A stretch of DNA of 46,355 bases from a bacterium (GCA_039934135.1 JBDTMT010000001.1:1-46355); one strand, 5' to 3'; counted from the stretch's first letter, positions 16,332 through 46,355 are shown. The notes: generated by a model not told the origin, from the letters alone. Numbers and translations are program-made.

Positions 16332-16556
16332 TGCAGAGGCGCGCTGGGAACAGTGTCGGCTCCCGGTTGTCCGTTCCCCGACTGGGAAGAAGCGGTGCTG
16401 GAGGGCGTCGACGCCGCCATGCACGAGCTGTCGTTTTGCCGGTCGCCAGTCATCCGCGCGAGATGGTTCCGGCTGTCCGCCGACCGCGCCTCGACCAGTT
16501 CAGGTCGAGGGCGCGGTCGGGTGGAGCGCGCACGTCTCACGCAGGTACGGGCGTGA

Positions 16557-22208: not shown

Positions 22209-22347
22209 ACTGCGTCGTCCGTCGGCGTCTCGGCCGCACGGGGCCTCCGCCGCTGCTTCCCGCGGCCGGGCCCTCTGCCCCCCTCGTAGCGACGGAGAGC
22301 AGGCACGTCGGGAACGGGCAACGAGATCTCCGTGCGGAGCGCTGTGA

Positions 22348-23526
22348 ATGAAACTATGCTTCATTTCATACGCGAGGAACAGCAATCTCGACGGCCGGTT
22401 GACGAAGTTCGTCGAGAAGCTGCAGCAGCAACTCCCGGGGCACCTGCCTCACGGTACTAAGCCCGCCGATGTCGTGTTCTTCGATGTGATGGGCATCGAG
22501 AACGGCGACGAGTGGATGCTGCGTCTAGCGGAAGCCACGCGTCGTTGTCGGGTGTGCGTCTGCTTCTACAGTCCACCGTACTTCACGAGTGAATATAGCG
22601 GGCGAGAGGTGCAGGTGTTCCTGCAACGCGTCCATGATTGGAAGACCACGAATCCCGGGCGGGATGTGCAGGCGATCATCCCGGTCATTTGGAGACCCCA
22701 CCATCCGATCCCTGCCGTCTTGCAGGTATTCCAATACGCTCACCAGGGTCTGCCTCCCGCATACGTCGAAGACGGGTTGCACTCGCTCGCTATGCGAAAA
22801 GGCCAGCGAGACGCGTACAATAGAGTTCTCGAAATCCTTTCTGCACGGATCGCAGCTGCATTGCAGGGCGCGCCCCTACCCGATGGACCGCCGATTGCCT
22901 CGTTCGGACAGGTGGCGAGTGCATTCCACGTTGCGCCGAGCCCAACACGGTACGGTGCGTCTGTGATTCTACTCGCCACCCCGGAACGCCGGATGCAGCC
23001 ATTCGCCGCCGCGGCCGTGTCGCTCGATGTCCTGGTGGAGCGAGTTGCCAACAGAAGTGCGGTGCCGTTTCGCGAGATCAATCTCGGCGCACAGACCGCC
23101 GCCGACGTGGCTGCGTCGCAAGCCGCACGGGAGATGCCGGTGTTGGTCGCGGATCGTGCGTCGCTCAGCTCGCCACTCAACCAGCCGCTCGTTCGGGCTC
23201 TGGCGGCGACCTTTGACGCGTCTGCCACTGTGGTCGTCTTTGGCGATCCATCGCCAAATGCGTCCGATGCGGCCGCGGATCTCCGCGGTCTCATCAGCAC
23301 CGCATTCGTGCCGTGGGGCAGCGGTCTGGGATCGACGTCCTGCCTCGTGGCAACCGATCCGGCGATTTTCGAGTCGGAGCTGGAACGTCGATTGACGAAG
23401 GCTCGCCACGAGCTGATCTCGGCTGACCCGGCTGGGCGCGCTCAGCACTCCGGCTTGGAAGCGGAGGCCGCGGCTCGCGGCATCTCGGTCGGCAGTCAGC
23501 CCGTTCTGGCGAGTCCTGGTGCCTGA
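22348..23526 (+). CDS. TIR-like domain protein (FxsC-like architecture: N-terminal TIR-like domain plus uncharacterised C-domain)
   Basis: MKLCFISYARNSN...VVFFDVMGIENGDEWMLRLAEATRRCRVCVCFYSPPYFTSEYSGREV. Visibly lower GC and GC3 than flanking backbone genes. Confidence 0.7.
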   Translation: MKLCFISYARNSNLDGRLTKFVEKLQQQLPGHLPHGTKPADVVFFDVMGIENGDEWMLRLAEATRRCRVCVCFYSPPYFTSEYSGREVQVFLQRVHDWKTTNPGRDVQAIIPVIWRPHHPIPAVLQVFQYAHQGLPPAYVEDGLHSLAMRKGQRDAYNRVLEILSARIAAALQGAPLPDGPPIASFGQVASAFHVAPSPTRYGASVILLATPERRMQPFAAAAVSLDVLVERVANRSAVPFREINLGAQTAADVAASQAAREMPVLVADRASLSSPLNQPLVRALAATFDASATVVVFGDPSPNASDAAADLRGLISTAFVPWGSGLGSTSCLVATDPAIFESELERRLTKARHELISADPAGRAQHSGLEAEAAARGISVGSQPVLASPGA

Positions 23527-23527
23527 T

Positions 23528-25417
23528 ATGCCGCCACGACGAATTGTAGAGTCGGCGAAGAAAAAGCCGCGCGCGGCCGCCTCGTCCAAGAAATCGGCGC
23601 GCGCGCCCGTCGGGAGAGTCATCACTTTCTATTCCTACAAGGGGGGCACGGGGCGCACGATGGCGCTGGCCAACGTCGCTTGGATTCTGGCCAGCAGCGG
23701 CCGCCGTGTGCTGGTGATCGATTGGGACCTCGAGGCACCCGGTCTGCACCGCTACCTGCATCAATTCCTCGACGACAGCGAAGGTACCAACCGGCCCGGG
23801 CTCATCAACTTCCTGTGGGAGTTTGTCGAGGGGGCTCGCGCGCACGTCGATTCCCCGAAGACCGAGTGGTTCGCATCCTATGCGAACCTCGGGCGCTATG
23901 CCTGTTCGCTGGAGTGGGAGTTCCCGGGAGACGGGACGATCGACTTCATCACCGCTGGCCGTCAGGGTTCGTCGTATGCGTCCAGCGTCACGTCATTCGA
24001 CTGGAACGAATTCTATGAGCGGCTCGGTGGGGGAACCTTCCTGGAGGCGGTCAAGAAGAACCTACGTAGCGAGTATGACTACGTCCTGATCGACAGCCGC
24101 ACCGGCATCTCCGACAGCTCGGGGATTTGTACCATCCAGATGCCCGATGATCTGGTCGTCTGCTTCACGCTCAACACGCAGAGCATCCGCGGCGCGGCGG
24201 CGACTGCGGAATCGGCATTCCAGCAGCGCATTACCCCCAGTCGCGCACCCGGGCTGCGGGTATGGCCCGTGCCCACTCGAGTTGAGCTGGCCGAGCGCGA
24301 TCGACTGGAGCGAGCCCGCGACGAAGTGCGGGCTCGATTTCAGAGATTTCTGCATCATCTGCCAGCGAAGAATCGGGTCGCGTATTGGGGGCGGGTGGAG
24401 GTGCTGTACCAACCCTACTACGCCTACGAGGAGGCACTGGCGGTGCTCACCGACCGCCCACAGCAAGTGGGGTCGCTCTTGCAGTCGTTCGAGCATCTCA
24501 CAAGCTACCTGACCGATGGGTCCGTTGAGTCGCTCGCCAGAGGCGTCGGTCAGACGGGACGGTCGGCTCCGCTTCCACCTGTCGGAGAGGATGTGGGTCC
24601 GTTCTTCGTCAGCTACAGTCGAGCCGATGAGGAATTCGCATCACGCCTGGTTCACGCACTTCGTGACCGGCTGGGATCCGCTTCGGTACTCTGGGATCAG
24701 AATCTCCTCGCCGCGGGCGATCCCTTCGGCGAGAAGCTCGCGGTCGCCATGAACGACGCTCAGGCGGTTCTGCCACTCGTCGGTCCGTCGTACGTCGAGA
24801 GCCCGACGACCGAGAGGGAGATTGCGTACGCGCTCGCCCGCGGCTTGCGAGTCATTCCCTTGCTGCTGCCCGGCGTGACCTGGTCTGACCTCTCCGTGCA
24901 GCGCGAGCCGTTCGAGTCGCTCAGGCGATTCTACGGGTTTGAGTTTGGCAAGGGCCTGCCGTCGACGAAGAAATCCTCCGATCCGCTCCGAGTCGGGAGC
25001 GAGGGCGACGTCGACCAACTGATTGAGTTTCTCCGAACCGCGAGTAGCCGGGGACGAGGCGTGGCGGTGGCGGATCCCGACGATCCGCATCGCGGGCAGT
25101 TCGGTGGCCGCAGCGAGCGGAACGGCTTCACCCTGAGCGCCAGGGTTGCGTCGCTCAGCCGCAGCTGGTTCGAGCTCGAGCTTCGGGTGACACGGTATGG
25201 CGCGCCGACAAGCGATACAGGCGAAGTGGAATTTCATATCCATCCGACGTTCGACCCGCCGGTGCGCCGTGTGCGTGGCGGGAAAGACGGCGCAACACTG
25301 ACGCTCGAGACGTACGGAGCCTTCACGGTTGGTGCGATCGTTCTCGACTCACTCTCGATGTTGGAGCTCGACCTCTCGACGCTCAAGCAGGCGCCTAAGG
25401 TCTTTCGAGAGGGGTGA
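23528..25417 (+). CDS. ParA/MinD-like ATPase with variant Walker A (KGGTGR), fused to a TIR domain and a C-terminal pYEATS-like domain
   Basis: ATG 23528 (alternative GTG at 23519). ITFYSYKGGTGRTMALANVAWILASSGRRVLVIDWDLEAPGL. TIR: FFVSYSRADEEFASRLVHAL...VLWDQNLLAAGDPFGEKL...GPSYVESPTTEREI. C-terminus: DPHRGQFGGRSERNGFTLSARV...VEFHIHPTFDPP...LETYGAFTVGA...LELDL. Confidence 0.75.
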   Translation: MPPRRIVESAKKKPRAAASSKKSARAPVGRVITFYSYKGGTGRTMALANVAWILASSGRRVLVIDWDLEAPGLHRYLHQFLDDSEGTNRPGLINFLWEFVEGARAHVDSPKTEWFASYANLGRYACSLEWEFPGDGTIDFITAGRQGSSYASSVTSFDWNEFYERLGGGTFLEAVKKNLRSEYDYVLIDSRTGISDSSGICTIQMPDDLVVCFTLNTQSIRGAAATAESAFQQRITPSRAPGLRVWPVPTRVELAERDRLERARDEVRARFQRFLHHLPAKNRVAYWGRVEVLYQPYYAYEEALAVLTDRPQQVGSLLQSFEHLTSYLTDGSVESLARGVGQTGRSAPLPPVGEDVGPFFVSYSRADEEFASRLVHALRDRLGSASVLWDQNLLAAGDPFGEKLAVAMNDAQAVLPLVGPSYVESPTTEREIAYALARGLRVIPLLLPGVTWSDLSVQREPFESLRRFYGFEFGKGLPSTKKSSDPLRVGSEGDVDQLIEFLRTASSRGRGVAVADPDDPHRGQFGGRSERNGFTLSARVASLSRSWFELELRVTRYGAPTSDTGEVEFHIHPTFDPPVRRVRGGKDGATLTLETYGAFTVGAIVLDSLSMLELDLSTLKQAPKVFREG

Positions 25418-25423
25418 ACGAGC

Positions 25424-26599
25424 TCACGTCCTTGCGAACGGGCCGAAGTGCGTGGCGACCTCTACCTCGCGTTGGCCGACGGCGCGGCCGATGCGGCGGA
25501 GGCTGTCGATCTGATCGACCGCATCCATCTGTTGCACCGCTTCGGAACGCAGGTCGCCGCAGCCGAGCGCTTCGAGGCCGCCGGGGCTGAGGTCGGCGTT
25601 GTAGCGCACGTAGCGGAAAAGACGTTTGTGGTCGCGCGCTCCGTCCCGCTCATCCTCCGCCGGCAAGACCAGATCGCCCATCTCGCGGTCAATCTCGGCG
25701 CCGTGCACGCAGCGGCCGAAGGTGCGGCAATTCACATCCTGATCGACCTGGATGGCGTACATCAACTCGCTGGGCAGGTTCTGGAGATTGCCGAACAGGT
25801 TGCGTTGCGTGGCGTCGGTCACCCCCGCCGCCGCCCCGGTGCCGACCGAGACGAGCAGCAGGTCCGACTCGCCGGTCTTCCAGTTCAGTCGATAGGCCGG
25901 TTGCGTCGCCATGCGGAACAGCAGGAAGGCGGGGTTGTTGTACGGCGTGACGCCACCGTCGACGAAGACGCGCACGTCGTCCGGCCGCTTGGGATTGAGG
26001 CTAATGATCTCGGGTGGGAAGAAGACGGGTGCCGCCGTGCTGGCACGGACCAGCTGCCAGAGCGGGATGCGCAGATTGCAGTCGTCGCGCTCGCAGTCGT
26101 TGTACTTGGCAAAGGGGTTGCTCGAGATCGGCCACGGGGAGTCTGTGGTGATGTTGCGCGTGACGACCAGCAGCAGGCAGCGCAGTCGATCGCTGGTCAG
26201 GTCGGCGGTGCCGCCGCGTCCGTCGTGGAACACCTTGCGTAGCGTCTGTGCCAGCGGCTCGTCCTTGTAGAGGCTGCCGAGCAGCGAGGTGACGCGCTTT
26301 AGCACCGAGGTCTTGTCGAACATGTCCGCGCCCGAAGAGCGATAGAACGTGAGCAGCTCATCGGTCGACATGCCGATCGCCAGGCCGGCGGCGATGATCG
26401 AGCCGGTGCTGGTGCCGCCGATATAGTCGAAGTAATCGCCGAGCCGCTGGATACCGGTCTCGCGATCGATCTGTCGCTCCATTTCGGCGAGGATCTCCAG
26501 CGTCAGCGCGCCGCGGATGCCGCCGCCGTCGAGAGCCAGGAGCTTGCGCGTTCGCTCGGTGGCGAACCGCTCCCTCAGGTGCTGCGGCCAATCGGTCAT
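25424..26599 (-). CDS. Patatin-like phospholipase
   Basis: LALDGGGIRG oxyanion motif, GGTSTGS nucleophile elbow, FVDGGV Asp motif. Convergent with the previous gene, with a 6-nt gap. Confidence 0.85.
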   Translation of the reverse strand: MTDWPQHLRERFATERTRKLLALDGGGIRGALTLEILAEMERQIDRETGIQRLGDYFDYIGGTSTGSIIAAGLAIGMSTDELLTFYRSSGADMFDKTSVLKRVTSLLGSLYKDEPLAQTLRKVFHDGRGGTADLTSDRLRCLLLVVTRNITTDSPWPISSNPFAKYNDCERDDCNLRIPLWQLVRASTAAPVFFPPEIISLNPKRPDDVRVFVDGGVTPYNNPAFLLFRMATQPAYRLNWKTGESDLLLVSVGTGAAAGVTDATQRNLFGNLQNLPSELMYAIQVDQDVNCRTFGRCVHGAEIDREMGDLVLPAEDERDGARDHKRLFRYVRYNADLSPGGLEALGCGDLRSEAVQQMDAVDQIDSLRRIGRAVGQREVEVATHFGPFART

Positions 26600-26673
26600 G
26601 TGGCGCCTCCTTCGTGTTGATCGCGACCGCTGTAGGAGATGGAAGCGCAGTACCGCGCGACCTCGCCTCGCTG

Positions 26674-26689
26674 CAATCAGGGATATCCC
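26674..26689 (-). promoter_or_regulatory. Possible degenerate island motif (GGGATATCCCTGATTG in patatin orientation; contains the perfect palindrome GGGATATCCC)
   Basis: 74 nt upstream of the patatin start. Matches GGGAAGTCCCAACTTG at 11/16 positions, with the TCCC and TTG blocks at the same spacing. Confidence 0.3.
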
Positions 26690-26770
26690 ATATCGCCATT
26701 GTCGAGCGCATCGGCGAGCGGCCGCTCACGTGCAGGCTGAATCGCACGGTCACATCACAGGAGCACATGC

Positions 26771-26786
26771 GGGTATTCCCCAGTTG
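26771..26786 (+). promoter_or_regulatory. Possible degenerate island motif (GGGTATTCCCCAGTTG)
   Basis: 99 nt upstream of the 26886 start, oriented toward it. Matches GGGAAGTCCCAACTTG at 12/16 positions. Confidence 0.3.
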
Positions 26787-26885
26787 TTAGGCCCGCCGCC
26801 GATCTGACAAAGGCGTTACGCACCCTGCTTGCGCTCGTGTCGAAAGAGCAGGTGCTCGTACGGGACTACATAGCGAGAGGTCTCG

Positions 26886-28871
26886 ATGACTATCCGTCCT
26901 CATGCATTCGTCGCCATGCCGTTCGGCGCCAAGCCCACTGCCGATGGCACGCTGCTCGACTTCAATCGCGTCTATCTCGAGCTGATCCAGCCCGCGTTGG
27001 AGAGCGCGGGACTGTCGAGCTTCCGCGCCGACGAGGAGTTGCGCGGCGGCGACATCAAGACCGACATGTTTCAGGAGTTGCTGGTCGCTGACCTGGTGGT
27101 GGCGGATCTGACGATCGACAATCCCAACGTCTGGTACGAGCTCGGTGTTCGGCATGCACTGCGCGCGCGCGGTGTCGTTCTGCTCTGTGGTGGCCGGACG
27201 ACCACGGCCTTCGATCTCTATACCGATCGCAAGCTGCGCTACGGGATCGCCGACGGTGCGCCGGATGCGCGCACGCTGGAGACCGATCGCAGCCGGCTGG
27301 CGGCGATGGTCCAGGCGACGATGGAGTCGTGGCACGGTCGCAAGATCAGTCCCGTCTACCAGCTCCTGCCGAACCTACAGGAGCCGGACTGGAAGACGCT
27401 GCGCGTTGGCGACGTGCGTGAGTTCTGGGATCAGCACGAGGCGTGGGAGCGACGCGTCGACTTGGCGCGCCGGGACGAGCGCATCGGTGACCTGCTGGTG
27501 CTGGCCGACGAGGCGCCGGTCGCCGCCTTTCGCGCCGAGGCCTGGATCAAGGCGGGCCAGGCGCTGCGCAAAGCACACCTGTTTCTCTTCGCCCTCGAAC
27601 AGTTGGACCGTGGTCTGGCGATCGAACCGCTTCACATCACCGGGCTGCGGGAGCGCGGTATCTGCCTGCAACGCCTCGCGCTTATGGGACTCGCCGGCTA
27701 CTCGCTCGAGCGCGCGCGAGATCACTACCGCGACGTCCTCACGCACTATCCCAACGACCCTGAGACCTGGGCTCTCCTGGGCCGCGCCGACAAGGATGCC
27801 TGGACGGCCGCCTGGCGGCTCAAGGATCGAACACCTGTCCAACGCCGGGAGGATGCCGCCTACGAGGACGCGCTCCTGCGTGCTGCCATTGTCAGCTACG
27901 CGAAGGGCTACCGGGTCGACCAGAACCACTATTACTCGGGGATCAACGCGCTCACCCTCATGCATCTCCATGACGACCTCGTCGAAGGAGCGCGCTACCA
28001 GCGTGACTCGGAGATTATGCGCGGCGCCGTACGCTTCGCGGCGGAGGGCGAAGCGGATCGCGACCAGCTCTTCTGGGCGAAGGCCACGATCGGCGATCTC
28101 GAAGTGCTCGTTGGGACGCCCGACACCGTGCAGCAGGCATACAAGGACGCCATCGCCCTCAACGACAAGGATCCGTTCGCTCTCAACTCGGCGCGCGACC
28201 AACTGCTGATGCTGCAGGAGTTGAGCTTTCGGCCGGAGGCGGTCGCGGCGGGTATCGCCACCTTCGACCGCGCGCTCGCTCGCCTCAAGCTACCGGAGCA
28301 ACAATGGGAGCCGCGCCAGGTGTTTCTGTTCAGCGGCCACATCGTTGACGCGCCCGGGCGGCCCCAACCGCGCTTCCCAGCGAGCAAGGTCGACGCCGCG
28401 CGGCAACGGATCGCCGAGGTGTTGGATCGTCACGCCGCGGGACCGGACGACCTCGCCTACTGCCAAGCAGCCGCCGGCGGCGACCTCCTCTTTCTCGAAG
28501 CGTGTCAGCAGCGCCAGGTGCGTTACCGCATCCTGTTGCCGTTTCCCGAGGCAACGTTCCTCACTCGGTCCGTTCTGCCGTCGACCGACGGGGCGGCATG
28601 GCGCGACCGCTACTTTGCAGCGCTCGGCACCGCCGCCGCGCCGCGCATCATGCCCGACGAGCTCGGCCCGTTGCCTCAGCACGTCGACGCCTTCGAGCGC
28701 TGCAACCTCTGGCTGCTGTATAGCGCGCTCGCCTGTGGCCTCGCGCGGGTGCGTTTCGTCTGCTTGTGGGACGGCGGTGGCGGCGACGGCCCGGGCGGTA
28801 CCGCTCACATGTACAACGCGGTGTCGGCGCGCACCGGCCATGTCGATCGAATCGATGTCCACTCGCTCTGA
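26886..28871 (+). CDS. TIR-like/deoxyribohydrolase-like N-domain, TPR (DUF4071/TRAFs-binding-like) core and C-terminal SLOG-like domain
   Basis: N-terminus: AFVAMPFGAKP...VADLVVADLTIDNPNVWYELGVRHAL. Long helical-repeat middle. C-terminus: VFLFSGHIVD...AAGGDLLFLEA...LLPF...CLWDGGGGDGPGGTAHM (Gly-rich loop plus PGGxGT-like motif). Confidence 0.7.
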   Translation: MTIRPHAFVAMPFGAKPTADGTLLDFNRVYLELIQPALESAGLSSFRADEELRGGDIKTDMFQELLVADLVVADLTIDNPNVWYELGVRHALRARGVVLLCGGRTTTAFDLYTDRKLRYGIADGAPDARTLETDRSRLAAMVQATMESWHGRKISPVYQLLPNLQEPDWKTLRVGDVREFWDQHEAWERRVDLARRDERIGDLLVLADEAPVAAFRAEAWIKAGQALRKAHLFLFALEQLDRGLAIEPLHITGLRERGICLQRLALMGLAGYSLERARDHYRDVLTHYPNDPETWALLGRADKDAWTAAWRLKDRTPVQRREDAAYEDALLRAAIVSYAKGYRVDQNHYYSGINALTLMHLHDDLVEGARYQRDSEIMRGAVRFAAEGEADRDQLFWAKATIGDLEVLVGTPDTVQQAYKDAIALNDKDPFALNSARDQLLMLQELSFRPEAVAAGIATFDRALARLKLPEQQWEPRQVFLFSGHIVDAPGRPQPRFPASKVDAARQRIAEVLDRHAAGPDDLAYCQAAAGGDLLFLEACQQRQVRYRILLPFPEATFLTRSVLPSTDGAAWRDRYFAALGTAAAPRIMPDELGPLPQHVDAFERCNLWLLYSALACGLARVRFVCLWDGGGGDGPGGTAHMYNAVSARTGHVDRIDVHSL

Positions 28872-37021: not shown

Positions 37022-37702
37022 ATGATCACGCGCCGTGAAACCCTGCGCCAGCTGCTGATCGGCACAGTCGGGCTATTCAGCGCCGCGGGCTGTGCCAGAC
37101 TGAGCGCCGAGGCACCCTCCATGGCCGCGTCGTCCTATCGCCGGGTATTTCTTTTCAGCGGGCATATGATCGACGCAGCGGGCCGCGCCACGCCGCGCTT
37201 TCCGGCCGACAAGGAGGCGATCGCCGCCGCCGCCATCGGCGCCGCGCTCGACGCTCGCGGCTGCGGCGGCGGCGACCTCGGCATCTGCGGCGGGGCGTGC
37301 GGCGGCGATCTGCTGTTCGCCGAGGCGGTGCTGGCGCGCGGCGCGCACCTCCAGCTGCTGCTGCCGTTCGACGAGCAGACGTTCCTGAGCGAGTCGGTCG
37401 ATTTCGCCGACGCCGGGTGGCGGCCGCGGTTCTTCGCCGTCAAGCAGAAGCCGCACACCGTGACGCAAGTCGCTCCCGAGGCGCTCGGGCCGCTGCCGCC
37501 GGGTGCCAACCCGTACGAGCGCGAGAATCGCTGGCTCCTCGATACGGCGCTCGCCCACGGTGCCCAGCGACTCGACTTCATCTGCCTGTGGGACGGCGGC
37601 GGCGGCGACGGTCCCGGCGGCACGCGCCACATGGTTGAACAGGTCGAAGCGGCTGGCGCCCACGTCACCTGGCTGGATACCCGCACGCTCTGGACGGTCT
37701 GA
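37022..37702 (+). CDS. Tat-signal lipoprotein consisting of a stand-alone SLOG-like domain (paralog of the C-terminus of 26886..28871)
   Basis: ATG 37022 after GGAGGG. MITRRETLRQLLIGTVGLFSAAGC (twin-Arg plus lipobox). VFLFSGHMID...ACGGDLLFAEA...LLLPF...CLWDGGGGDGPGGTRHM aligns block for block with residues ~470-660 of the 26886 protein. Confidence 0.65.
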   Translation: MITRRETLRQLLIGTVGLFSAAGCARLSAEAPSMAASSYRRVFLFSGHMIDAAGRATPRFPADKEAIAAAAIGAALDARGCGGGDLGICGGACGGDLLFAEAVLARGAHLQLLLPFDEQTFLSESVDFADAGWRPRFFAVKQKPHTVTQVAPEALGPLPPGANPYERENRWLLDTALAHGAQRLDFICLWDGGGGDGPGGTRHMVEQVEAAGAHVTWLDTRTLWTV

Positions 37703-37946: not shown

Positions 37947-38927
37947 ATGGCCCGAATCGAAGTGCGGCTCTTTGGACGTTTTGCGCTGTCGCGTGGCGGA
38001 TGCGCGGTCGACAGCATCGGCGCCACCAAGCTGCGCGAGATTCTCTGCTACCTGCTCCTGCACCACGACCGCCCGCATCCGCGCGAGCGGCTGGCCAGCC
38101 TGCTCTGGCCCGACACGACGACCGAACGCTCACGTAAGTACTTGCGTCAGGCGCTCTGGCAGTTGCAGGCGGCGCTGCGTGGCGGCGATCGCGACACGGG
38201 CGCGGATTGGCTGCGGATCGAGACCGACTGGATTCGCCTCGACGTCGACGGCGAGGTCGACGTCGACGTCCTGCGCTTCCAGGCGGCGGTGACGGCCGCG
38301 GCGACCGCCGCCGGCGACGGGCCATTGCCGGCCGAGGTGGCGGCGAGCCTGGAGGCCGCGGTCGAGACATATCGCGGCCCCCTGCTCGAGAATTGCTACC
38401 AGGACTGGTGCCTGCGCGAGCGCGAGCGCCTGCACGATCTCCTGCTCGACGCGCTCGACCTGCTGGCGGCGCATCACGAGGCGGGGCGTCGCTACGCACC
38501 CGCGCAGCAGTGGACCATGCGCCTGCTGCGCGACGACCCGGCCCGTGAGGGCGCCCACCAGCGGCTGATGCGGATACACTACCTCGCCGGCAACCGCACC
38601 CGAGCCCTGCGCCAATTCGACGAGTGCGTCTCGGCGCTGGACGACGAGCTGGGCGTCGAACCGAGCGCCGCGACCACGGCGCTGCGCGATCGCATCCGCG
38701 CCGGCGAACCGGTCTCGCCGGCCGTCGACGCGGGCGCACCCGACCTCGACCATATCCTGCGCCACCTGCGCGACCTCGAACACGAGCTCGCCGGCGTGCA
38801 GGGACATGTCCGCCAACGCATCGCTGAGGTTGAGCGCGTGCGCGCCGGCATGGCCGTGCCGTCCGCCCCGGCCCGCCGCCCGCTCCGCCGCGCGGCGCCT
38901 CTGCCGCGTACCGCGGCGCAGCGTTGA
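37947..38927 (+). CDS. SARP (AfsR/DnrI/RedD) family transcriptional regulator: OmpR-type winged helix plus BTAD
   Basis: ATG after AGGAGG. IEVRLFGRFAL...LREILCYLLLHHDRPHPRERLASLLWPD. BTAD pattern YRGPLLEN...WCLRERERL...LMRIHYLAGNRTRALRQFDECVSALDDELGVEPS. Confidence 0.8.
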   Translation: MARIEVRLFGRFALSRGGCAVDSIGATKLREILCYLLLHHDRPHPRERLASLLWPDTTTERSRKYLRQALWQLQAALRGGDRDTGADWLRIETDWIRLDVDGEVDVDVLRFQAAVTAAATAAGDGPLPAEVAASLEAAVETYRGPLLENCYQDWCLRERERLHDLLLDALDLLAAHHEAGRRYAPAQQWTMRLLRDDPAREGAHQRLMRIHYLAGNRTRALRQFDECVSALDDELGVEPSAATTALRDRIRAGEPVSPAVDAGAPDLDHILRHLRDLEHELAGVQGHVRQRIAEVERVRAGMAVPSAPARRPLRRAAPLPRTAAQR

Positions 38928-39062: not shown

Positions 39063-42000
39063 CTACTTGCGGGGTCGTCGCGTCGCTTGGCCCTGCTTGG
39101 CGCGCGGCGTCGCGGCCGGCTTCTTGCGGCTCGGCTTGGCGGCTGGCATCTTACCGCGCGGCTTGCCGGCAACACGCTTGGGCTTCCTCGCCGGGGCGGC
39201 CGGAGACGCGACCGGCGCGGCGCCGGCGGTGAGGTCGTCGCGCAAGCCATCGAGCCCGGCGCGCAGCCGCTTGCGCCGATCGGCGGCCGGCTGCAACACG
39301 GTCATCTCGATCAGGAACTCCAGCTGCTCGACGATCGAGCTGAGCTCGCGCGGGCTGGCGGCGCGGCGGTGCAGGTTCGCGTAGGTCGTGGAGATCGACG
39401 TCCGCACGGTGGCCTGGTCGAGATCGCCGCTGAGCAGATGGATGAGTACGTCGCAGTCGGGCGCCACGGTGCCGGCCCAGAAATCCGGTTGGCGCGTGTC
39501 GCGCTTTACGCCTTCTCCGCGCGCTTCCTGCAGCCAGCGTGCGACGTCGACGCCCGACTTCCCGCCCGCCCAGTCATACAGGATCTCGGCCGTCAGCCAG
39601 TTGAGCAGCGGGTAGGGGTCGCCCACCGTGAAGGTTCGCTCGCCTTCGCCGGGACCGTGCGCCTCGCGGTAGCAGCTGGCCATCTTCTTCAGCGCGGCGC
39701 GCCGTTGATCGCCGCTCGTCAGCTGCGCCTGACGCTTGTACGCGGCGCCCAGCAACGACAGCCGCTCGCCGGTGCGCCCGAGTTCGAGGAGCCGGGTGAG
39801 CCGGTCGATGGCGCCCTGCACCAGGGCCGCCGGCTGCTCGCCCTTGAGCCCATCCGCGACTCCCTTCTGGAGATCGATCGCGGCGCGGCTCTCGAAGTTG
39901 GCGAGTTGCTCGATCGCCGCCACCGACGGCGACCCGTCGGCGGCCAGCGCCCGGCGCAGCTCCAGGACCGCCCTATCGAACCGCCGCAGCTCGCCATAGG
40001 CGATGCCGAGCGCGGCGAGGATATCGCCGCGCAGCAACCAGTCCGGCCGGATGGCGCTGGCGAGATGGTCGAGCCGCTGGAGGAACTGGCCCATCTCCTC
40101 GGGGCCGCAGGTCCTGGCGCGCTGCGCGACATGTTCCAGGTCGCGCAGCGTCTCGACCGCAGCCACCGGCGACGCTGGCGTCGCGTCGTCGCCCGCCGCA
40201 CCGTCCGGAACGAACGTGTAGGCTGGATCGCCGTAGCATTGATAGGCGCCCCAGGTGTTGAAGCCGGGATGGCGGTCGTAGGTGTCGTTGCGCGCCCGCA
40301 GAACGGCCGTCCCGAACGGCGTGCCGCGTAGCAGGTGAGCGTAGAAGGCGGTGGCGAAGGTCTCGGCCGCCGCGTCGTCCACCGCCCACCCGGCGGCGAC
40401 CACGGCGCGCACGCCCATCTCGATGAATTGGGCGGCGATGTTGGCGGCGAAGCGCTGGAAGTGCCCTTCCTGCAGTGGTGCGCTGAGCGGCGTCGCCCGG
40501 TCAACTCGGGCGAGGTGGCAGCAATTGATGAACACCAGCTCCGGCACTCGCCGCATCTGTTTCACGGCGGCCGCGGTGAGGAAGACCCTGTCGCCGATGA
40601 CCATGCCGCTGACCCGTCGCGGTGCGCGCGTACGGGCGGAAGAGGTCGCGCCCGTGTCACCCGCCGGCGCGCACGAGCCGGCGCTGTCGTTGGCGGCCGG
40701 CTCGACCGGGAAGTCATGCACGCCGTGGCCGGCGAGGTGAAGGACGCGATAGGCATTCGCGTGCAGGGCGGTGAGGATCGCGTCCGGATCGCTCTGGATG
40801 CAGGACCGGACCACGAAGCCGGCGCCGCTCAGGCTGCGCTCGACGGCCCGCACCTCGGTGGCGGCGCCCGGCAACGGCGTCGCGAAGCCGCCCGTCTCTG
40901 GGTCGCCGATCAGCAGGGCGGTGCGTTCGGCGGTGATCTCGACCCGCTCGCGATAGTCGTGGGTCTCCAACTGGCGCAGCACGCCGCGCTCGAGGGCCAG
41001 CGGCCGCTGACCCTCCGCCCAACGGTCCTCGAGCAGCTCCCAGGGATAGCGGGCCGCGCACTCGTCGACCACCAGGACCAGCGAGTCGCGATTCGGCATC
41101 TGGTCCTTCAGCGCGTTGGGCAGCAGCATCTCGAACAGGGTGCGGGCGGTCTCCTGGCTTGAGGCCGGCTGGCGCGTGGCGTGATCGAGGAACTGATCGA
41201 CCAGGCTGCGATCGGTAGCGACCAGCTCGACTTCGGCGCGGGCGCGATTGGTCAGCAAGGCGAAGCGCAGCCCGTCCTCGACGCCGCGGATCTGCAGGCG
41301 CTGCCACCATCCCGCGCTCTCTTCGAACAACACCCGCCAGCGCGCGCCGGCACGCTGGACGAGCAGCGGATCATCGATCAGCAGCCCACCGCGCAATTCG
41401 GCGTCGCTCTCCAGGCCGCGCAACGCTCGGGCGGCGTGGATGGCCTGGTCGCCGAACAGCTCGATGAACTCGACTGCGTCGATCAATACCTCGCGGTCGA
41501 GCTGTGCCTGCCGCAGGGCGGAGTTGGTCCGCACCTCGGCCCGCAGGATCGCCGCCACCGACTCGCGCACCGGCAGACCACCCGCGCCAGTGCCGATGAG
41601 CAGCGAGGTCAGGCACACCGAGCGCGGCGCACCGAGCGGAGTCTCCGGGTCCCGCGGCCGCTCGGCGACGGTCATGACGTAGTCGCGCACGCCGGCGGCG
41701 ACCGTGCGGGTGAGGCCGGGCGCCGTCAGCTCGCCCACCTGGCCGAGTCCGACGACGATCGCCCCGCCGCGGCGAAACGGGTCGTTCTGTAGGACGGAGG
41801 CGTGCGTGCCGATCGCCCCCGGGTAGAGCCCGAGCTGCAAACGGTGGCGCAGGTGGCCATCGAGGTGGCGGTCGAGGACCGCTTCGGCGCTGACGATGGT
41901 GTCGCCGGTATAGTGACCGACGATGACCGGGTGGCGGGCGTACGACAGATCGCCGTGCGCGACCGACACTGTGACGCGATGCGCGGGCGGCGCGGCGGCA

Positions 42001-44627
42001 CGGTGGCGGCGCCGCGCGCCAATCGCGGCGCGCGCCAGCTCGTCCTCATCCGGCATGACGTCGGCGATGTCACGCGGCATGGTGAAACGCTCCTCGACGC
42101 CGCGCACCGCCACCGGCGGCGCCGTCGGCAGACGGGTGGTGTTGCCGGTGTGCAGCAGTTCTAGGAGCGCGGTGAACGCCGGGGCGTGGTTGGCGAGGTC
42201 GCCGTGCTCGGCGTCGGCCATGTACCAGGTCTGCAGTCCCTCCGGGATGCCGGTCGCCCACGGCACGCGGCCGTCTCCCCGGCTGGTGGCGACGAAGCGC
42301 AGGCGGTTGCCGGCCTTCTCGCGGGTGTGAAACTCCATTTCCACCGGTGTCGCCGGCGCCCAGCCGGCGACGTAGAGGACGCGATCGGCGTGCGGCAGCT
42401 TGGCGGACAGCCGCGCGCGCGCCGCGCGCGCCGCCTCGAGCGCCGCGCGCGCCGGCGGCACCCAGCCCTGGTTGTCGATGTCGGCGATGCGCGCCCAGGT
42501 GGCGGGTGCGAAGAAGTCCATCGCCGCATCGTCGGGCAGCATCTCCAGCGCACCGGGGAAGCGGGAGAGAATGGCGAGAAGCTCCTGACGCGAGTGGCGC
42601 AGGTCGGCCAGCGCCAGCTTGCGCAGGGTGCCCGAGGTGCCGACCAGCAGGCTGGTGATTTCGTGCGAGCCGCCGTTGGGGGTGCCGAGCATCACCAGGC
42701 GTCCCTGCGGGTGCGCACAGATGCGGTCCCACAGCTCCGGCGCCTGGGCGATCATCATGCGCGCCACCAGGCCGCCCATCGAGTGGGCGAGGAGGCGCAG
42801 CGGCTGGCCGCTGGCCGTGGCGGCGTCGAGCCGCATCCGCACCTCCTGCCCGAGACGCTCCGCTGCCTCGGTGATCGACCGGCGCCAGTCGTACGGGAAG
42901 GTGACGACGTCGTGCGAGTCGCTCAGGAACTCGACCAGGTCACCGTAGGCGAGGCCGACCAGCGACTGGGTATCGACGTTCGGCGCGTCGATGGCGATCT
43001 TGCGCAGACCACCCGTCGCGAGGCTGAGCGGGTTGATCCAGACGCGGCTCCCCCCGGCCGCGAGATGGCTCCCCATGATGCCGGGTATGACGAACACCAC
43101 CGGCCGCGGACCGGCCGGCCCGCGCATTGCCCGCTGCGGCACCTCACGCGACTCGCCGGTCGGGACGCTGAAGCCGCCGTCGCCGTCATCGGCGCGGGTC
43201 AGGCCCGCCACCACCCGCTCGGCGGTGCGGGAGTTGGCGAAGTAGGTGAAGTGGCTGACCTCGGCCCCCTGGTCGAAGAATGCGCGCACCGCGTTGCTGC
43301 GCGGCGCGCCCCCGTACATCGAGCGGGTGTCCACCACCAGGTCGTGGTCGCCGCCGAAGAACAGGTCGGGGATCAGCAGCTTCAGCGTGCCGAGGAAGCC
43401 GCCGCCCTCGGCGTCGCCGGCGACCACCGAGAGGTCGGCGTCGACGGTGCGGGCGGGATTGTTGAGGAGCCGCACGAGCGCGGCCTCCGGCATCATCGCC
43501 TCGAGGCCGGGCAGCGATTTCGGATTGGTGCGCTCGCGGGCCACGGCCAGCGTCAGGTCGACGATGCCCTCGTACAGCGGGTTCTGGTCGAGGCCCGGGA
43601 TGCGCCCGACCAAGTTGGCGAGGACGGAGAGCCAGCGATCGAGCTTGCCGGACGCCAGCGTCGTGCCGCGCGCCGGGCAGGCGACGCGCACGAAGCGTTT
43701 GACGGTGAACTGGCAGGCCTTGTCGTCGAGCAGTGCCGACAGCTCCTCCAACTCGCGGCGGCGGTCGGCCTTCACCGCCGGACTGAGCGCGGCGTCGGCG
43801 TCGGCATCGTCGCCGCCGGCGTACAGATCCAGATCCTTGGCGTCGAAGGGACGCCGATCGCGCTCGGCGACCCGGCAGAGGAGCTCGCCGACCAGACCGC
43901 CACGCGAGTGGCTGACGATGTGCAGCGGGCGACTGGCGAGACGCTTTAGAGCGGTCAGCAGGTCGATGGCGTTGCGCACCGGGCTCTCGCTCAGCGTGCG
44001 ATGCTCGAAGGCGAAACAGGCCTTGCCGTAGGAGTCGCGCAGGCGGCGGAGCTCAGCGGCGCGCGGCGCCGACCACAGCGCGCCGAAGCTGCCGGCGGTG
44101 CTCGAAGCGGTGCCGTGCAGGAAGAGCAGCGCCGGCTGGTCCGCGGCCAGCTTCGGCAGCGTGTCGGAGAGATCGAGCGGCCCATCGAGCGAGCAGGCGA
44201 GGAGTCGCGAGTCGCCCCCCTCCAGCCGCTCTGCCAGCTTGCGCGCGGCATGCTCCTGCGGGCGGATGTCGAAGATCTGGAGTGCCTTGAGCACCAGGGC
44301 GCCGATGCCGCGCGTCTTCAGTCCCACCTGCAGGTAGGGCGAGATGGCGATCTCGTCGCTGCCGACGCTACGCGATGCCGAGCCCGGGAACTCGCGCCGG
44401 AAGTCTTCGAAGCGCATCCAGAGGCGTACGTCGCCTTCGATGTGCAGCTCGATGACATCGTCAGGTGTCACTCCCTCGATGATCACCGGCGCGGCGGCTG
44501 GTCCGCGCGCCGCATCGAGGTGGACGGCGCCGCGGCGCTTAACCGCCAGCAGACCGCCGGCCCGCCGTCCATCGTCGACGCCGCCCGACGGCACGTCGGG
44601 GGTCCCTGGAATGCGCAGCGTGGCCAT
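39063..44627 (-). CDS. Giant (1854 aa) multi-effector protein: two alpha/beta-hydrolase (lipase-like) modules, CHAT protease domain, TPR-like region and basic C-terminal tail
   Basis: Start MATLRIPG (44627) after GGAGAG. LLFLHGTASS...HIVSHSRGG. VVFVIPGIMGSHL...FPYDWRRS...LLAHSMGGLV (LCAT/PGAP1-like). CHAT dyad RVLHLAGHG / LVFINCCHLA. C-terminal helical repeats, then KPKRVAGKPRGKMPAAKPSRKKPAATPRAK. Confidence 0.8.
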   Translation of the reverse strand: MATLRIPGTPDVPSGGVDDGRRAGGLLAVKRRGAVHLDAARGPAAAPVIIEGVTPDDVIELHIEGDVRLWMRFEDFRREFPGSASRSVGSDEIAISPYLQVGLKTRGIGALVLKALQIFDIRPQEHAARKLAERLEGGDSRLLACSLDGPLDLSDTLPKLAADQPALLFLHGTASSTAGSFGALWSAPRAAELRRLRDSYGKACFAFEHRTLSESPVRNAIDLLTALKRLASRPLHIVSHSRGGLVGELLCRVAERDRRPFDAKDLDLYAGGDDADADAALSPAVKADRRRELEELSALLDDKACQFTVKRFVRVACPARGTTLASGKLDRWLSVLANLVGRIPGLDQNPLYEGIVDLTLAVARERTNPKSLPGLEAMMPEAALVRLLNNPARTVDADLSVVAGDAEGGGFLGTLKLLIPDLFFGGDHDLVVDTRSMYGGAPRSNAVRAFFDQGAEVSHFTYFANSRTAERVVAGLTRADDGDGGFSVPTGESREVPQRAMRGPAGPRPVVFVIPGIMGSHLAAGGSRVWINPLSLATGGLRKIAIDAPNVDTQSLVGLAYGDLVEFLSDSHDVVTFPYDWRRSITEAAERLGQEVRMRLDAATASGQPLRLLAHSMGGLVARMMIAQAPELWDRICAHPQGRLVMLGTPNGGSHEITSLLVGTSGTLRKLALADLRHSRQELLAILSRFPGALEMLPDDAAMDFFAPATWARIADIDNQGWVPPARAALEAARAARARLSAKLPHADRVLYVAGWAPATPVEMEFHTREKAGNRLRFVATSRGDGRVPWATGIPEGLQTWYMADAEHGDLANHAPAFTALLELLHTGNTTRLPTAPPVAVRGVEERFTMPRDIADVMPDEDELARAAIGARRRHRAAAPPAHRVTVSVAHGDLSYARHPVIVGHYTGDTIVSAEAVLDRHLDGHLRHRLQLGLYPGAIGTHASVLQNDPFRRGGAIVVGLGQVGELTAPGLTRTVAAGVRDYVMTVAERPRDPETPLGAPRSVCLTSLLIGTGAGGLPVRESVAAILRAEVRTNSALRQAQLDREVLIDAVEFIELFGDQAIHAARALRGLESDAELRGGLLIDDPLLVQRAGARWRVLFEESAGWWQRLQIRGVEDGLRFALLTNRARAEVELVATDRSLVDQFLDHATRQPASSQETARTLFEMLLPNALKDQMPNRDSLVLVVDECAARYPWELLEDRWAEGQRPLALERGVLRQLETHDYRERVEITAERTALLIGDPETGGFATPLPGAATEVRAVERSLSGAGFVVRSCIQSDPDAILTALHANAYRVLHLAGHGVHDFPVEPAANDSAGSCAPAGDTGATSSARTRAPRRVSGMVIGDRVFLTAAAVKQMRRVPELVFINCCHLARVDRATPLSAPLQEGHFQRFAANIAAQFIEMGVRAVVAAGWAVDDAAAETFATAFYAHLLRGTPFGTAVLRARNDTYDRHPGFNTWGAYQCYGDPAYTFVPDGAAGDDATPASPVAAVETLRDLEHVAQRARTCGPEEMGQFLQRLDHLASAIRPDWLLRGDILAALGIAYGELRRFDRAVLELRRALAADGSPSVAAIEQLANFESRAAIDLQKGVADGLKGEQPAALVQGAIDRLTRLLELGRTGERLSLLGAAYKRQAQLTSGDQRRAALKKMASCYREAHGPGEGERTFTVGDPYPLLNWLTAEILYDWAGGKSGVDVARWLQEARGEGVKRDTRQPDFWAGTVAPDCDVLIHLLSGDLDQATVRTSISTTYANLHRRAASPRELSSIVEQLEFLIEMTVLQPAADRRKRLRAGLDGLRDDLTAGAAPVASPAAPARKPKRVAGKPRGKMPAAKPSRKKPAATPRAKQGQATRRPRK

Positions 44628-44725
44628 CACGTCTCTCCGATCGGGTAGCGGGGTGCCGAGCTTTGCCCAAAACAACGAACAACCGAACGACTCGGGGCCT
44701 GGGAGCTCTTGGCAAGCCGTGCGTA

Positions 44726-44758
44726 CGGGTCACGCGGGATGGTGCCTCGCGTGACCCG
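44726..44758 (-). other. Intercistronic 11-bp-stem hairpin between the caspase-like and CHAT genes
   Basis: CGGGTCACGCG (44726-36), an 11-nt loop, then CGCGTGACCCG (44748-58). No U-tract follows in the transcribed direction. Confidence 0.5.
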
Positions 44759-44781
44759 GCGGAATATGCGGCGGATCGCCG

Positions 44782-45627
44782 TCAGTCCAGGCCGCCGAGG
44801 AAGGGCAGGTCGAGACCGCTCGCGCGTCCCTCCAGTTGCGGGATCTGATCGAAGGCGGACTTCGTCAGCGCCGCGCTGGTACGGGTGTGTAGCTCGCGGT
44901 TTGTCAGCCGCCCGCGGGCGGCGCGGATCGCCTTGCACAGGTAGTAGGTGAGGGCGCCGTTGTAGCTGCCGCCAATGTCGGCGTCGGCCGAGGTCTGGGT
45001 GGAGCGACAGCCGGTGACGAGGATTTCTGGAATGTCCACGGCGACCACGTCACGCGGCGCGCGTCTGGCGGGCGACGAGCGCAGCGAACCGCGAACGGCG
45101 CCGCGCAGCGAGCGCCCGGACTCCTCGGCCACCAGGTCCCACGGGCTGGGGAGGTAGCGCTCGACGACCTTGGCATCCGGCGGCTGCACGGCGCGGGTGA
45201 TGCTGCCGGAGTGGCAGCAGTCCATCACCACGGTCAGACTGGCGCCGCGAGCCTTGACGCGATCGATGGCGGTTCGCAGCCAGTCGTCGAGAAGCGGCTT
45301 CTTCCAGTCGAGATCGGTCGGACAGAGGATCTCGTCGCGGTGGTCGGCCTCGTCGCCGTTCTTGTCTGGCACGTTCGACCCGTGCCCGGAGTAGTGGAGG
45401 AGCAGCACGTCGCCGCGCTTCGACTCCTTGATCAGGGTGTTGATCGCGGCCTTCATCGCCGTGGTGGTGGCGGCGAAGTCGAGCAGGCGGGCGATGTCCT
45501 TGCGCCGGAAGCCGTAGACTTCGGTGAGCACGGACTCCATGTTCTTGACGTCGTTGACACAGCCGCGCAGATCCGCGCCCGCGATCCGGTAGCGGTTGAT
45601 GCCGATCATCAGTGCCTTCTTCGCCAT
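44782..45627 (-). CDS. Caspase-like (peptidase C14 / metacaspase-type) protease
   Basis: Start MAKKALMIGINRY (45627) after GGGAGG. Catalytic dyad motifs LLLHYSGHGS and VVMDCCHSGS. Confidence 0.8.
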   Translation of the reverse strand: MAKKALMIGINRYRIAGADLRGCVNDVKNMESVLTEVYGFRRKDIARLLDFAATTTAMKAAINTLIKESKRGDVLLLHYSGHGSNVPDKNGDEADHRDEILCPTDLDWKKPLLDDWLRTAIDRVKARGASLTVVMDCCHSGSITRAVQPPDAKVVERYLPSPWDLVAEESGRSLRGAVRGSLRSSPARRAPRDVVAVDIPEILVTGCRSTQTSADADIGGSYNGALTYYLCKAIRAARGRLTNRELHTRTSAALTKSAFDQIPQLEGRASGLDLPFLGGLD

Positions 45628-45712
45628 GGTCGTTCCTCCCTCTCGTTCGCCGGATGATGGCGCGGCGCCTGCCGCGGCGGAGTCTCGGGCGTGTCTGCGC
45701 CGGCGCCTCTCG

Positions 45713-46355
45713 TCATTGATGCCGCCAGAACGCGAACGACTGGAACTGGGCACCGCGCCACCAGGCGCTCGGCTTGACGATCAGGCGGTGGTTGGTGACG
45801 CCCGCCTGTGATTCGACCGGATTGCGCACCGCCCCGGCGGCGGTGCGGGCGGCGCGGACTCGATCCTCGGGCGCGACGGCGACGATGTGGCCGGAGCGGT
45901 TGGTGTCCTTGCGCTTGGCGGCGATCAGGCACACCTGTCCGGCATTGGCCGAGGCCTGGAGCACGTCGAGGTCGGGTACCCACTGCCATCCGAAGGCCGG
46001 GCCGAAGTCGCGCAGCCAGTCGTGCAGCGCGTTGGCGTTGAGCTCGCGGACGGTGGCGTCGTAGCGCACCGGCACGTCCTCGCCGGCGCCGATGCGAGCG
46101 AGGGCGGGCGGCGTCCAGAAGACCCGTGGCAGGTAGACCTGCGCCAGGTAGCAATAGTCGTAGGCGTAGACGTTGCAGTAGGTCGTGGTCGTCTTCGGAC
46201 CGTATCGCAAGTGGCTGCGGCGCTCGCTGTCGAGGTAGGCGATGATCGCCAGCAGCTCCGCGGCGCCGCGCGCCGGGTCGCTGGCGCGCCGCCGCGGCAT
46301 GCCGGTCTCGCCGAGCGGAAAGGCGTGGCCGCCATCGCGGCGGCGGGTGATGTCG
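45713..46355 (-). CDS. Papain-fold (NlpC/P60- or CHAP-like) Cys-His hydrolase, putative; 5' end may lie beyond the window
   Basis: TTTYCNVYAYDYCYLAQVYLPR (candidate nucleophile Cys) and NRSGHIVAVAP (candidate His). The frame stays open from 46300 to the window edge, so the MPRRR start at 46300 is not secure. Confidence 0.45.
   Translation of the reverse strand, partial: DITRRRDGGHAFPLGETGMPRRRASDPARGAAELLAIIAYLDSERRSHLRYGPKTTTTYCNVYAYDYCYLAQVYLPRVFWTPPALARIGAGEDVPVRYDATVRELNANALHDWLRDFGPAFGWQWVPDLDVLQASANAGQVCLIAAKRKDTNRSGHIVAVAPEDRVRAARTAAGAVRNPVESQAGVTNHRLIVKPSAWWRGAQFQSFAFWRHQ

Follow-up and report, generated by a model that had tools for sequence, protein, structure and literature searches.

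A caspase-like gene and a giant CHAT–TPR-S gene with two serine-hydrolase modules form a conserved bacterial pair with recurrent endolysin-type partners

The bacterial contig GCA_039934135.1 JBDTMT010000001.1, analysed here over its whole length of 46,355 nucleotides (the window), ends in three co-oriented genes: the 3′ part of a gene for a predicted cell wall hydrolase (gene 1), a gene for a stand-alone caspase-like protease (gene 2, the caspase) and a gene for a protein of 1854 residues (the giant) that joins two serine-hydrolase modules to a CHAT protease domain and a TPR-S region. We find that the caspase and the giant form a conserved core, to which endolysin-type enzymes of two unrelated folds are recurrent, clade-specific additions. 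The open reading frame (ORF) map places all three genes on the minus strand, with gaps of 85 nt between gene 1 and the caspase and 154 nt between the caspase and the giant, in exact agreement with a preliminary description of this DNA, and each of the catalytic motifs which that description listed (SHSRGG, AHSMGG, HLAGHG, FINCCH, HYSGHG and DCCHSG) is found in the sequence. The positions of the three genes, of the giant's domains and of the neighbouring genes are collected in Table 1. An alternative start codon of the giant, TTG, lies 16 codons 5′ of the ATG used here.

The giant carries, in order, an N-terminal domain, a DUF7379 module, an LCAT-like module, a Macro-like domain, a β-rich linker region, the CHAT domain and TPR-S. 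Matches to DUF7379 (128.5 bits), CHAT (111.8), TPR-S (PF20308, 44.3), LCAT (PF02450, 32.5) and DUF676 (22.4) all exceed the curated Pfam cut-offs (24 bits for CHAT, 27.6 for TPR-S and 21 for LCAT), and a Pfam search with the N-terminal domain gave no match. By aligning 23 sequences, the homologs being 40–77% identical to the window protein, we found the hydrolase serines S241 and S616 and the CHAT residues H1301 and C1369/C1370 to be invariant, together with the candidates for the remaining triad residues, which are D405/D429 and H459 in the DUF7379 module and Asp785 and His808 in the LCAT-like module. The preliminary description had proposed two separate Ser-hydrolase modules and a CHAT domain and had made its reading depend on conservation of the catalytic residues; both assignments hold, and in the giant that conservation is complete across the homologs. 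It had also called the two modules lipases, of which the α/β-hydrolase families and the conserved serine stand, while action on lipids is suggested at the level of the family. For the second module the profile of the giant family matches structures of Group XV phospholipase A2 (the lysosomal LPLA2) and of LCAT; for DUF7379 we know of no characterised member. The linker that separates the second hydrolase from the Macro-like domain is variable apart from one invariant arginine, R842. The giant has no transmembrane segment or signal peptide, its hydrophobicity maximum falling under the transmembrane threshold, and it is predicted to be cytoplasmic.

Residues 860–1480 of the giant were modelled with AlphaFold2 (AF2) from an 18-sequence alignment, with a mean predicted local distance difference test score (pLDDT) of 75.8 that rises to about 82–94 in the Macro-like section. 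In Foldseek searches the Macro-like domain matched YmdB, macroH2A, the ADP-ribose-bound macrodomain of O. iheyensis and the N-terminal domains of leucine aminopeptidases (LAP), at a probability of 1.0 and template modelling scores of 0.6–0.69 on the target. The CHAT region, also at a probability of 1.0, shows a clan-CD fold and matched the TPR-CHAT protein Csx29 (best), DdvA, separase and the SAVED-CHAT filament 8tl0. By sequence, the Macro-like domain gives weak matches to LAP and, over one macrodomain loop, to the macrodomain TTHA0132, as well as a weak Peptidase_M17_N match in 15 of 18 members, all under the cut-off. Since there is no match to the Pfam Macro family and the M17_N match is weak, we name this domain Macro/LAP-N-like rather than a macrodomain proper. 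From the model we hypothesise that it may be a ligand-binding module, and TPR-S is the predicted sensor of the giant. The Macro-like domain, the TPR-S sensor and the TIR context described below had not been seen in the preliminary description and are added by the present analysis.

The caspase consists of the catalytic domain alone and has no sensor domain. Its match to Peptidase_C14 (PF00656; 114.1 bits against a cut-off of 21.4) covers residues 3–266, with a dyad formed by His82 (HYSGHG) and Cys138 (DCCHSG), as the preliminary description had proposed. It is metacaspase-like, metacaspases being the closest solved structures by sequence (E 6e-34). The dyad is conserved: among 33 partner ORFs linked to giants, a set that includes some C11 enzymes, 32 retain the Cys and 27 the His. 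Homologs at 65–71% identity are very numerous. In two of three contexts anchored on the caspase (L189, 9001–13863, and L191, 9001–13864), a caspase about 70% identical to ours lies directly upstream of a gene for a 1303-residue protein of Peptidase_C11, CHAT and DUF7379; the third context lacks such a protein. Homologs of the caspase thus precede two architectures that contain CHAT and DUF7379, suggesting that the caspase tracks this combination and not one fixed architecture.

The giant family is large and its layout is uniform. Nearly all of the 120 best database matches are 1750–1930 residues long, share a common set of Pfam domains and are 40–50% identical, and nearly all full-length homologs retain TPR-S. 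When one genome per species was scanned with a pattern, at least 545 giant loci were recovered, in Proteobacteria, Desulfobacterota, Acidobacteriota, Nitrospirota, Verrucomicrobiota, Chloroflexota, Bacteroidota, Actinomycetota and Methylomirabilota. With a profile of the central region, Macro-like plus CHAT, we retrieved 2146 representative clusters, defined at 50% identity, at E≤1e-30. Among the top 150 of these representatives we saw no clear variant in which the effector is swapped on the Macro–CHAT–TPR-S chassis. Nearly all full-length matches keep about 850–950 residues N-terminal of the matched region, and the shorter ones may be fragments at contig ends. Culturable carriers include Thauera phenolivorans ZV1C, Thauera sp. 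2A1, Azotobacter chroococcum DSM 2286, Rhodoferax antarcticus and Denitromonas species. No model in PADLOC-DB v2 matches the giant or gene 1, and the caspase matches its generic ‘caspase’ model only. A literature search found no paper on the giant family or its architecture, and searches on DUF7379 and on TPR-S with TIR gave no result.

We then asked which genes accompany the giant. ORFs around the 80 best genome loci were clustered without prior labels, the clustered set amounting to 83 with the window and the loci L001 and L002. The commonest neighbour is a clan-CD protease, found within 10 kb in 33 of the 66 loci with enough upstream sequence; in 28 of the 66 its gene immediately precedes the giant in the same orientation. 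Most of these partners are about 260–320 residues long and match the C14 caspase of the window; a subset of 429–465 residues is Peptidase_C11. The adjacency of caspase and giant spans Proteobacteria, Desulfobacterota and other phyla, and the pair is the conserved core of these loci. The preliminary description had expected all three genes to be conserved together, which holds for the caspase and the giant but for gene 1 in some clades only. Of the other neighbours, an M15_3 peptidase that matches the PHROG 894 ‘endolysin’ lies directly downstream of the giant at 14 of the 80 loci, and its proteins contain no hydrophobic segment. Patatin genes are found at nine of the 80. A domain of about 190 residues (unk194) occurs at 20 of the 80, often directly upstream of the giant and co-oriented with it, and is a possible accessory component of giant loci. 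It has no sequence match in Pfam or the PDB, stands alone or after TPR-S, and carries the invariant motifs FSGHxxD...R..PRFP, GGAxGGD(L/I)LFxE and LWDG..GDGPGGT; from the Gly-rich motifs one might guess at a SLOG-like nucleotide-binding fold.

Gene 1 proved to be of a different kind from the other two. As the preliminary description had noted, the gene is cut by the window edge: its reading frame runs through the last base, and the orthologs in the two closest relatives are 516–517 residues long, with a GH19 endolysin domain, an SH3_3 domain and the amidase-like domain in that order. Because the window is the whole contig, the sequence upstream of gene 1 is not recoverable from this record. 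In the ortholog of L001 both GH19 and SH3_3 exceed the Pfam cut-offs and the GH19 domain matches the PHROG 181 ‘endolysin’ (E 2.6e-80). Gene 1 homologs usually carry an N-terminal SH3_3, and about 20 relatives sit on viral contigs. The C-terminal domain has no useful match in Pfam, NCBIfam, PADLOC, PHROGs or PDB sequences, and the BFVD viral library gives weak CHAP/lysin matches only. The AF2 model of the fragment (pLDDT 96.2) has as its best Foldseek match the amidase Tse1/Tae1 of the type VI secretion system (T6SS), with probability 1.0 and a template modelling score of 0.64 on the target. The candidate catalytic residues, C60 (46175–46177) and H156 (45887–45889) of the fragment, show no variation among 36 homologs, and in the model C60 starts a helix (60–70) and H156 a strand (156–160), as in papain-like enzymes. 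The fragment had been put forward as an NlpC/P60-like Cys...His hydrolase and as a third protease of a cascade. The papain-like fold and the placing of C60 and H156 support the former, but no NlpC/P60 or CHAP profile matches, and membership in NlpC/P60-CHAP is, on the model, at superfamily level only. The latter proposal fails: the GH19–SH3–amidase layout, the PHROG 181 match and the Tse1/Tae1 fold argue for a wall hydrolase. The implied function is peptidoglycan cleavage by a predicted Tae1/CHAP-like Cys-His amidase. No hydrophobic segment that could serve as signal peptide or membrane helix was found in gene 1 and the orthologs checked, nor in the caspase.

None of the 80 best giant loci contains gene 1 in tblastn searches; within that survey gene 1, the SARP/BTAD-type regulator (Table 1) and nine proteins of an extracellular contractile injection system (eCIS) are found only in the window, L001 and L002. 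The notion that gene 1 is unlinked to the giant was dropped after a metagenome scan anchored on gene 1 recovered the linkage in distant clades. Here, gene 1 orthologs lie beside giants merely 33–35% identical to that of the window (L084, L099, L117 and L127); in L099 and L117 they immediately precede the giant, with gaps of 67 and 52 nt. L127 repeats the order gene 1, caspase, giant with gaps of 4 and 7 nt, at 33–52% identity, and has TIR and nSTAND1 genes beside the trio. In L084 the arrangement is divergent and genes for a caspase, a patatin and Pvc16_N lie in its vicinity, and in L106 the start of a giant is visible beside gene 1. About five of the 11 loci with a GH19-type gene 1 and enough flanking sequence have a giant, and other gene 1 homologs lie in unrelated or ordinary contexts (L083, L085 and L087). 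Thus the endolysin-type partner of the giant is a recurrent addition which differs between clades and is drawn from two unrelated folds.

A further association is with TIR domains. Using an iterated profile, TIR ORFs were detected within 10 kb of the giant in at least 24 of the 80 loci, some only 71–209 nt away, such as a pYEATS+TIR gene 209 nt upstream of the giant in L012 (9058–9792) and a TIR gene 71 nt downstream in L069 (6038–7288). In two giants a C-terminal TIR domain is fused after TPR-S (P0052, residues 2056–2183; P0113, residues 1988–2110). We also note a patatin gene 182 nt downstream of a TIR-fused giant in L187. The TPR scaffold concerned was reportedly introduced, together with the prokaryotic YEATS domain, by Burroughs and Aravind in 2020 (J Bacteriol), and TPR-S was reportedly defined in that article and in one by Burroughs et al. 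of 2015 (NAR).

Table 1. The three genes, the domains of the giant and the neighbouring genes of the window (nucleotide positions counted from its first letter).
Feature	Position	Strand	Residues	Evidence or remarks
Gene 1, C-terminal 213 codons	45713..46355	−		Frame open to the last base of the window
Caspase, 281 aa from ATG	44782..45627	−		Peptidase_C14; GGGAGG Shine-Dalgarno (strong ribosome binding site)
Giant, 1854 aa from ATG	39063..44627	−		ORF and Pfam domains
Giant: N-terminal domain, fold unassigned	44133..44627	−	1–165	Conserved R41, R86, R106
Giant: DUF7379 α/β-hydrolase	43128..44129	−	~167–500	Nucleophile Ser241 in HSRGG
Giant: LCAT/LPLA2/PGAP1-like α/β-hydrolase	42138..43115	−	~505–830	Ser616 in HSMGG
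Giant: Macro/LAP-N-like domain	41358..41975	−	~885–1090	Conserved Gly-rich loops VGLGxxG, LLIGTGAGG
Giant: CHAT (clan CD) protease, PF12770	40227..41156	−	1158–1467	His1301 in HLAGHG, Cys1369/1370 in FINCCH
Giant: TPR-S and flanking helical repeats	39228..40130	−	~1500–1800	Pfam match at residues 1550–1679
KAP-NTPase + TIR	19257–22208	+		Domain search
TIR	22348–23526	+		Domain search
ParA-like + TIR + pYEATS	23519–25417	+		Domain search
Patatin	25424–26599	−		Domain search
661-aa TPR-S protein, C-terminus is the unk194 domain	26886–28871	+		Domain search
DUF4062-nSTAND1-WD40 STAND NTPase, 1394 aa	32634–36818	−		Domain search
unk194 domain alone	37124–37702	+		Recurs beside giants
SARP/BTAD-type regulator, convergent with the giant	37947–38927	+		Pfam BTAD, 93.8 bits

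From 19 kb to its end the window is, judged from these predicted domains, a conflict island. The preliminary description had seen no NTPase in the visible part, which is correct for 39063–46355, but 2.2 kb downstream of the giant, and co-oriented with it, lies the gene for the DUF4062-nSTAND1-WD40 NTPase, which could act as a sensor upstream of the trio. The BTAD gene, found in the same position in L001, probably encodes a local regulator that is confined to this clade. The TIR-centred cluster (19257–28871) is separate from the trio and resembles TIR/TPR-S (Thoeris-like) systems; its 661-residue TPR-S protein, the N-terminal 230 residues of which have no Pfam match, may be a counterpart of ThsI, the type VIII effector. 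At 9307–10155 (+) we note an ORF with a Phd/YefM antitoxin domain, and the remainder of 1–18 kb is ordinary-looking chromosome, with a PAS histidine kinase, an acetyl-CoA hydrolase/transferase and an ammonium transporter. Long ORFs that overlap the giant on the opposite strand or in other frames (up to 587 residues, for example 42186–43949 on the plus strand) were rejected as artefacts of DNA of 70% G+C. A promoter scan around the trio found no promoter-like site and terminator-like hairpins occur at chance level (4 found against 2.4 expected), so co-transcription is neither supported nor contradicted. A weak 5-bp hairpin followed by a T-rich run is present in the caspase–giant gap (44683–44695, minus strand).

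Among the closest known counterparts of the pair is the type III-B CRISPR hybrid of Haliangium ochraceum with a cyclic oligonucleotide-based anti-phage signalling system (CBASS), in which a cyclic oligonucleotide switches on SAVED-CHAT, which cleaves and activates the stand-alone PCaspase; PCaspase then degrades many proteins, and the outcome of this two-step cascade is abortive infection (10.1101/2023.06.23.546230). In both cases a sensor-fused CHAT and a stand-alone Peptidase_C14 are encoded in one cluster, and the CHAT fold of the giant matches 8tl0. Unlike SAVED-CHAT, the giant has TPR-S (and the Macro-like domain) as its predicted sensor, contains two Ser-hydrolase modules, is about four times larger and has endolysin-type partners. 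No SAVED, cyclase or CRISPR genes are present in the window, and the relation is therefore one of working alike and not of membership. TPR repeats and a CHAT protease gated by a sensing event also occur in Craspase (type III-E Cas7-11 with Csx29), but in Csx29 the TPR is N-terminal, docks on the Cas effector and responds to target RNA, whereas the giant adds lipase-type and Macro-like domains and has no CRISPR association.

In Thoeris systems, fused sensors read ADP-ribose (ADPR) derivatives made by TIR enzymes, as in type IV (TIR with the caspase-like ThsE), type VIII (TIR with the CMP-hydrolase-TPR protein ThsI) and type II (a Macro effector). The TIR-made nucleotide of type IV activates the caspase-like effector (10.1101/2024.10.24.620036), the Macro domain of type II perceives His-ADPR, and in type VIII a TPR domain of the effector has been put forward as the part that perceives cyclic ADPR (10.64898/2025.12.03.692087); the latter paper states that a role of this domain in TIR signalling had been predicted by Aravind and colleagues. 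The trio shares with Thoeris a caspase-like protease as candidate death effector and a TPR region of the kind proposed as a sensor in ThsI; at least 30% of giant loci have TIR genes close by, and two giants are TIR-fused. In contrast to Thoeris, the operon in the window is without TIR, the caspase is without a C-terminal sensor and the architecture of the giant falls outside the validated effectors. As the TIR genes of the window are 14–20 kb away, we do not file the trio as Thoeris.

Other likenesses concern the killing step. The CBASS patatin CapV kills by hydrolysing membrane lipids upon a nucleotide signal, as we propose for the giant, although the giant's hydrolases have the α/β-fold (DUF7379 and LCAT-like) and are not patatins. 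The cytoplasmic endolysins of phage holin–endolysin cassettes need a membrane lesion; no holin is present here, and lipid hydrolysis would replace it. The gene 1 domain shares its fold with Tse1/Tae1 and has the Cys-His pair in the expected places, but is only 12–14% identical, is fused to GH19 and SH3 and is not accompanied by T6SS or immunity genes.

We consider it quite likely that the core of the trio is an intracellular effector pair of a conflict system, and we propose a ligand-gated cascade from CHAT to caspase, with lipases in the same chain and endolysins as the last element, which would serve programmed cell death against invaders. TIR enzymes probably supply the trigger: an NAD+-derived nucleotide, most likely from enzymes encoded nearby, would be bound by TPR-S and possibly by the Macro-like domain. 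Binding would activate CHAT, probably via oligomerisation, by analogy with SAVED-CHAT and Craspase. CHAT would then cleave and activate the adjacent pro-caspase, leading to the degradation of many proteins, and may in addition cut the linkers of the giant and so free both Ser-hydrolase modules. To judge from their families, the LCAT/LPLA2-like and DUF7379 hydrolases would attack membrane lipids. The recurrent linkage suggests that through the breached membrane the signal-less endolysins would reach the peptidoglycan and lyse the cell; the enzyme would here be the GH19–SH3–amidase of gene 1 and in other clades the M15 peptidase. This model builds on the domain set, the conservation of catalytic residues, the linkage of caspase and giant, the linkage to endolysins of two folds and the TIR enrichment with its fusions, all directly observed; as a whole we hold it to be evenly poised between right and wrong. 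That the locus is a self-contained lysis machine which needs no holin, combining TPR-S/Macro sensing of a nucleotide signal, CHAT and caspase, phospholipases and endolysin release, and maybe co-opted in some lineages for the release of contractile injection particles, is conceivable but doubtful; it would amount to a new and very widespread way of programmed lysis in bacteria.

Several points weigh against the proposed model. We infer every one of its activation steps, and the direction of proteolysis would follow from precedent. For both the DUF7379 and the LCAT-like module, lipid as the substrate is suggested by the family. The Macro-like domain is closer by sequence to the aminopeptidase N-domain, which to our knowledge is not known to bind ADP-ribose. 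The operon of the trio contains no TIR gene; the nearest ones, at 19257–25417, are 14–20 kb off and probably belong to a cluster of their own. The two TPR-S regions of the window are related via the Pfam profile, a pairwise BLAST between them being not significant. Recurrent partners of any kind are missing from 26 of the 83 loci, and housekeeping genes surround one of the giants. The literature yielded no ligand-binding data for any TPR-S protein, and the Thoeris study itself words perception of the ligand by the TPR as ‘presumably’ (10.64898/2025.12.03.692087).

The order of events could also be the reverse. In the preliminary description the caspase was apical and cleaved the giant to free and activate the lipases, with gene 1 as a further protease of the cascade. 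The three genes are adjacent and co-oriented, the invariant linker residue R842 would suit an Arg-specific enzyme of the metacaspase type, and the caspase family is better conserved than the giant. However, the caspase has no sensor or regulatory domain, both candidate sensors being in the giant; the sole tested analogue runs from sensor-CHAT to the stand-alone caspase (10.1101/2023.06.23.546230); and the product of gene 1, with its GH19 endolysin and SH3 domains, is a wall hydrolase and not a cascade protease. Moreover, a clan-CD partner gene is missing from about half of the giant loci, which speaks against any general dependence of the giant on the caspase. We thus regard this order as unlikely, and the action of sensor-CHAT on the caspase as the more likely direction. 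What survives of the earlier proposal of a proteolytic cascade feeding lipases is the co-conservation of caspase and giant, with SAVED-CHAT/PCaspase as precedent, but not the part given to gene 1. It might further be argued that three unrelated genes have simply come to lie together in a variable island, given that gene 1 homologs occur in ordinary contexts (L083, L085 and L087) and that giants can stand alone. The data on co-conservation contradict this: caspase and giant are adjacent across phyla, and L127 repeats the full order with its 4- and 7-nt gaps at 33–52% identity, leaving chance adjacency exceedingly improbable.

Two further explanations start from the neighbourhood of injection systems. 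In L001, the closest long relative, whose giant is 77% identical to ours, a complete eCIS-type cluster (Pvc16_N, sheath, tubes, VgrG, PAAR and gp25; 1–7226) adjoins gene 1 divergently, and in L084 the gene 1/giant pair has a Pvc16_N gene (16424–16900) at a distance of 7.5 kb. The window contig ends before the position of the eCIS cluster of L001. The giant and gene 1 might then be antibacterial or anti-eukaryotic payloads of the adjacent contractile injection system, all the more as gene 1 is structurally closest to a T6SS effector and lipases are common among secreted effectors. Against such a role, tblastn found no eCIS protein near 80 other giants or near other gene 1 loci, no small immunity-like gene is conserved beside the giant, the giant also stands alone in housekeeping neighbourhoods, and TPR-S, CHAT, the TIR fusion and the caspase partner are typical of intracellular sensor–effector systems; we consider toxin cargo very unlikely. 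Release of eCIS particles through lysis is established in other organisms. The locus could thus alternatively serve regulated lysis in development or in the release of cytoplasmic products such as injection particles, and not defence, the SARP/BTAD regulator switching on a protease–lipase–endolysin set in place of a holin–endolysin cassette. This would suit the signal-less endolysin-type partners of two folds, the conservation of the BTAD regulator beside the trio in this clade and the presence of eCIS clusters nearby in two independent contexts (L001 and L084). Yet the BTAD and eCIS links are each confined to a few loci, and the TIR, nSTAND, patatin and pYEATS neighbours point to islands that sense invaders, so that we find a developmental function rather improbable.

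All of the domain families involved have been catalogued, and nucleotide-gated protease cascades, in their general logic, were like the TPR-S sensor already known or predicted. New are the full domain map of the giant, including its Macro-like module, the partnership with caspase/C11 proteases across two architectures of CHAT and DUF7379, the recurrent coupling to endolysin-type enzymes of two folds and a quantitative link to TIR that includes fusions. By its predicted domains the giant unites in one chain a sensor, a caspase-type protease and a membrane-attacking enzyme, which are separate in known bacterial immune pathways. If the ligand-gated cascade proposed here is correct, bacterial caspase cascades would extend past the single example linked to CRISPR, and the widespread TPR-S sensor would be linked to an effector whose activity can be measured. 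It would also show how a cell can deploy endolysin-type enzymes on itself without a holin.

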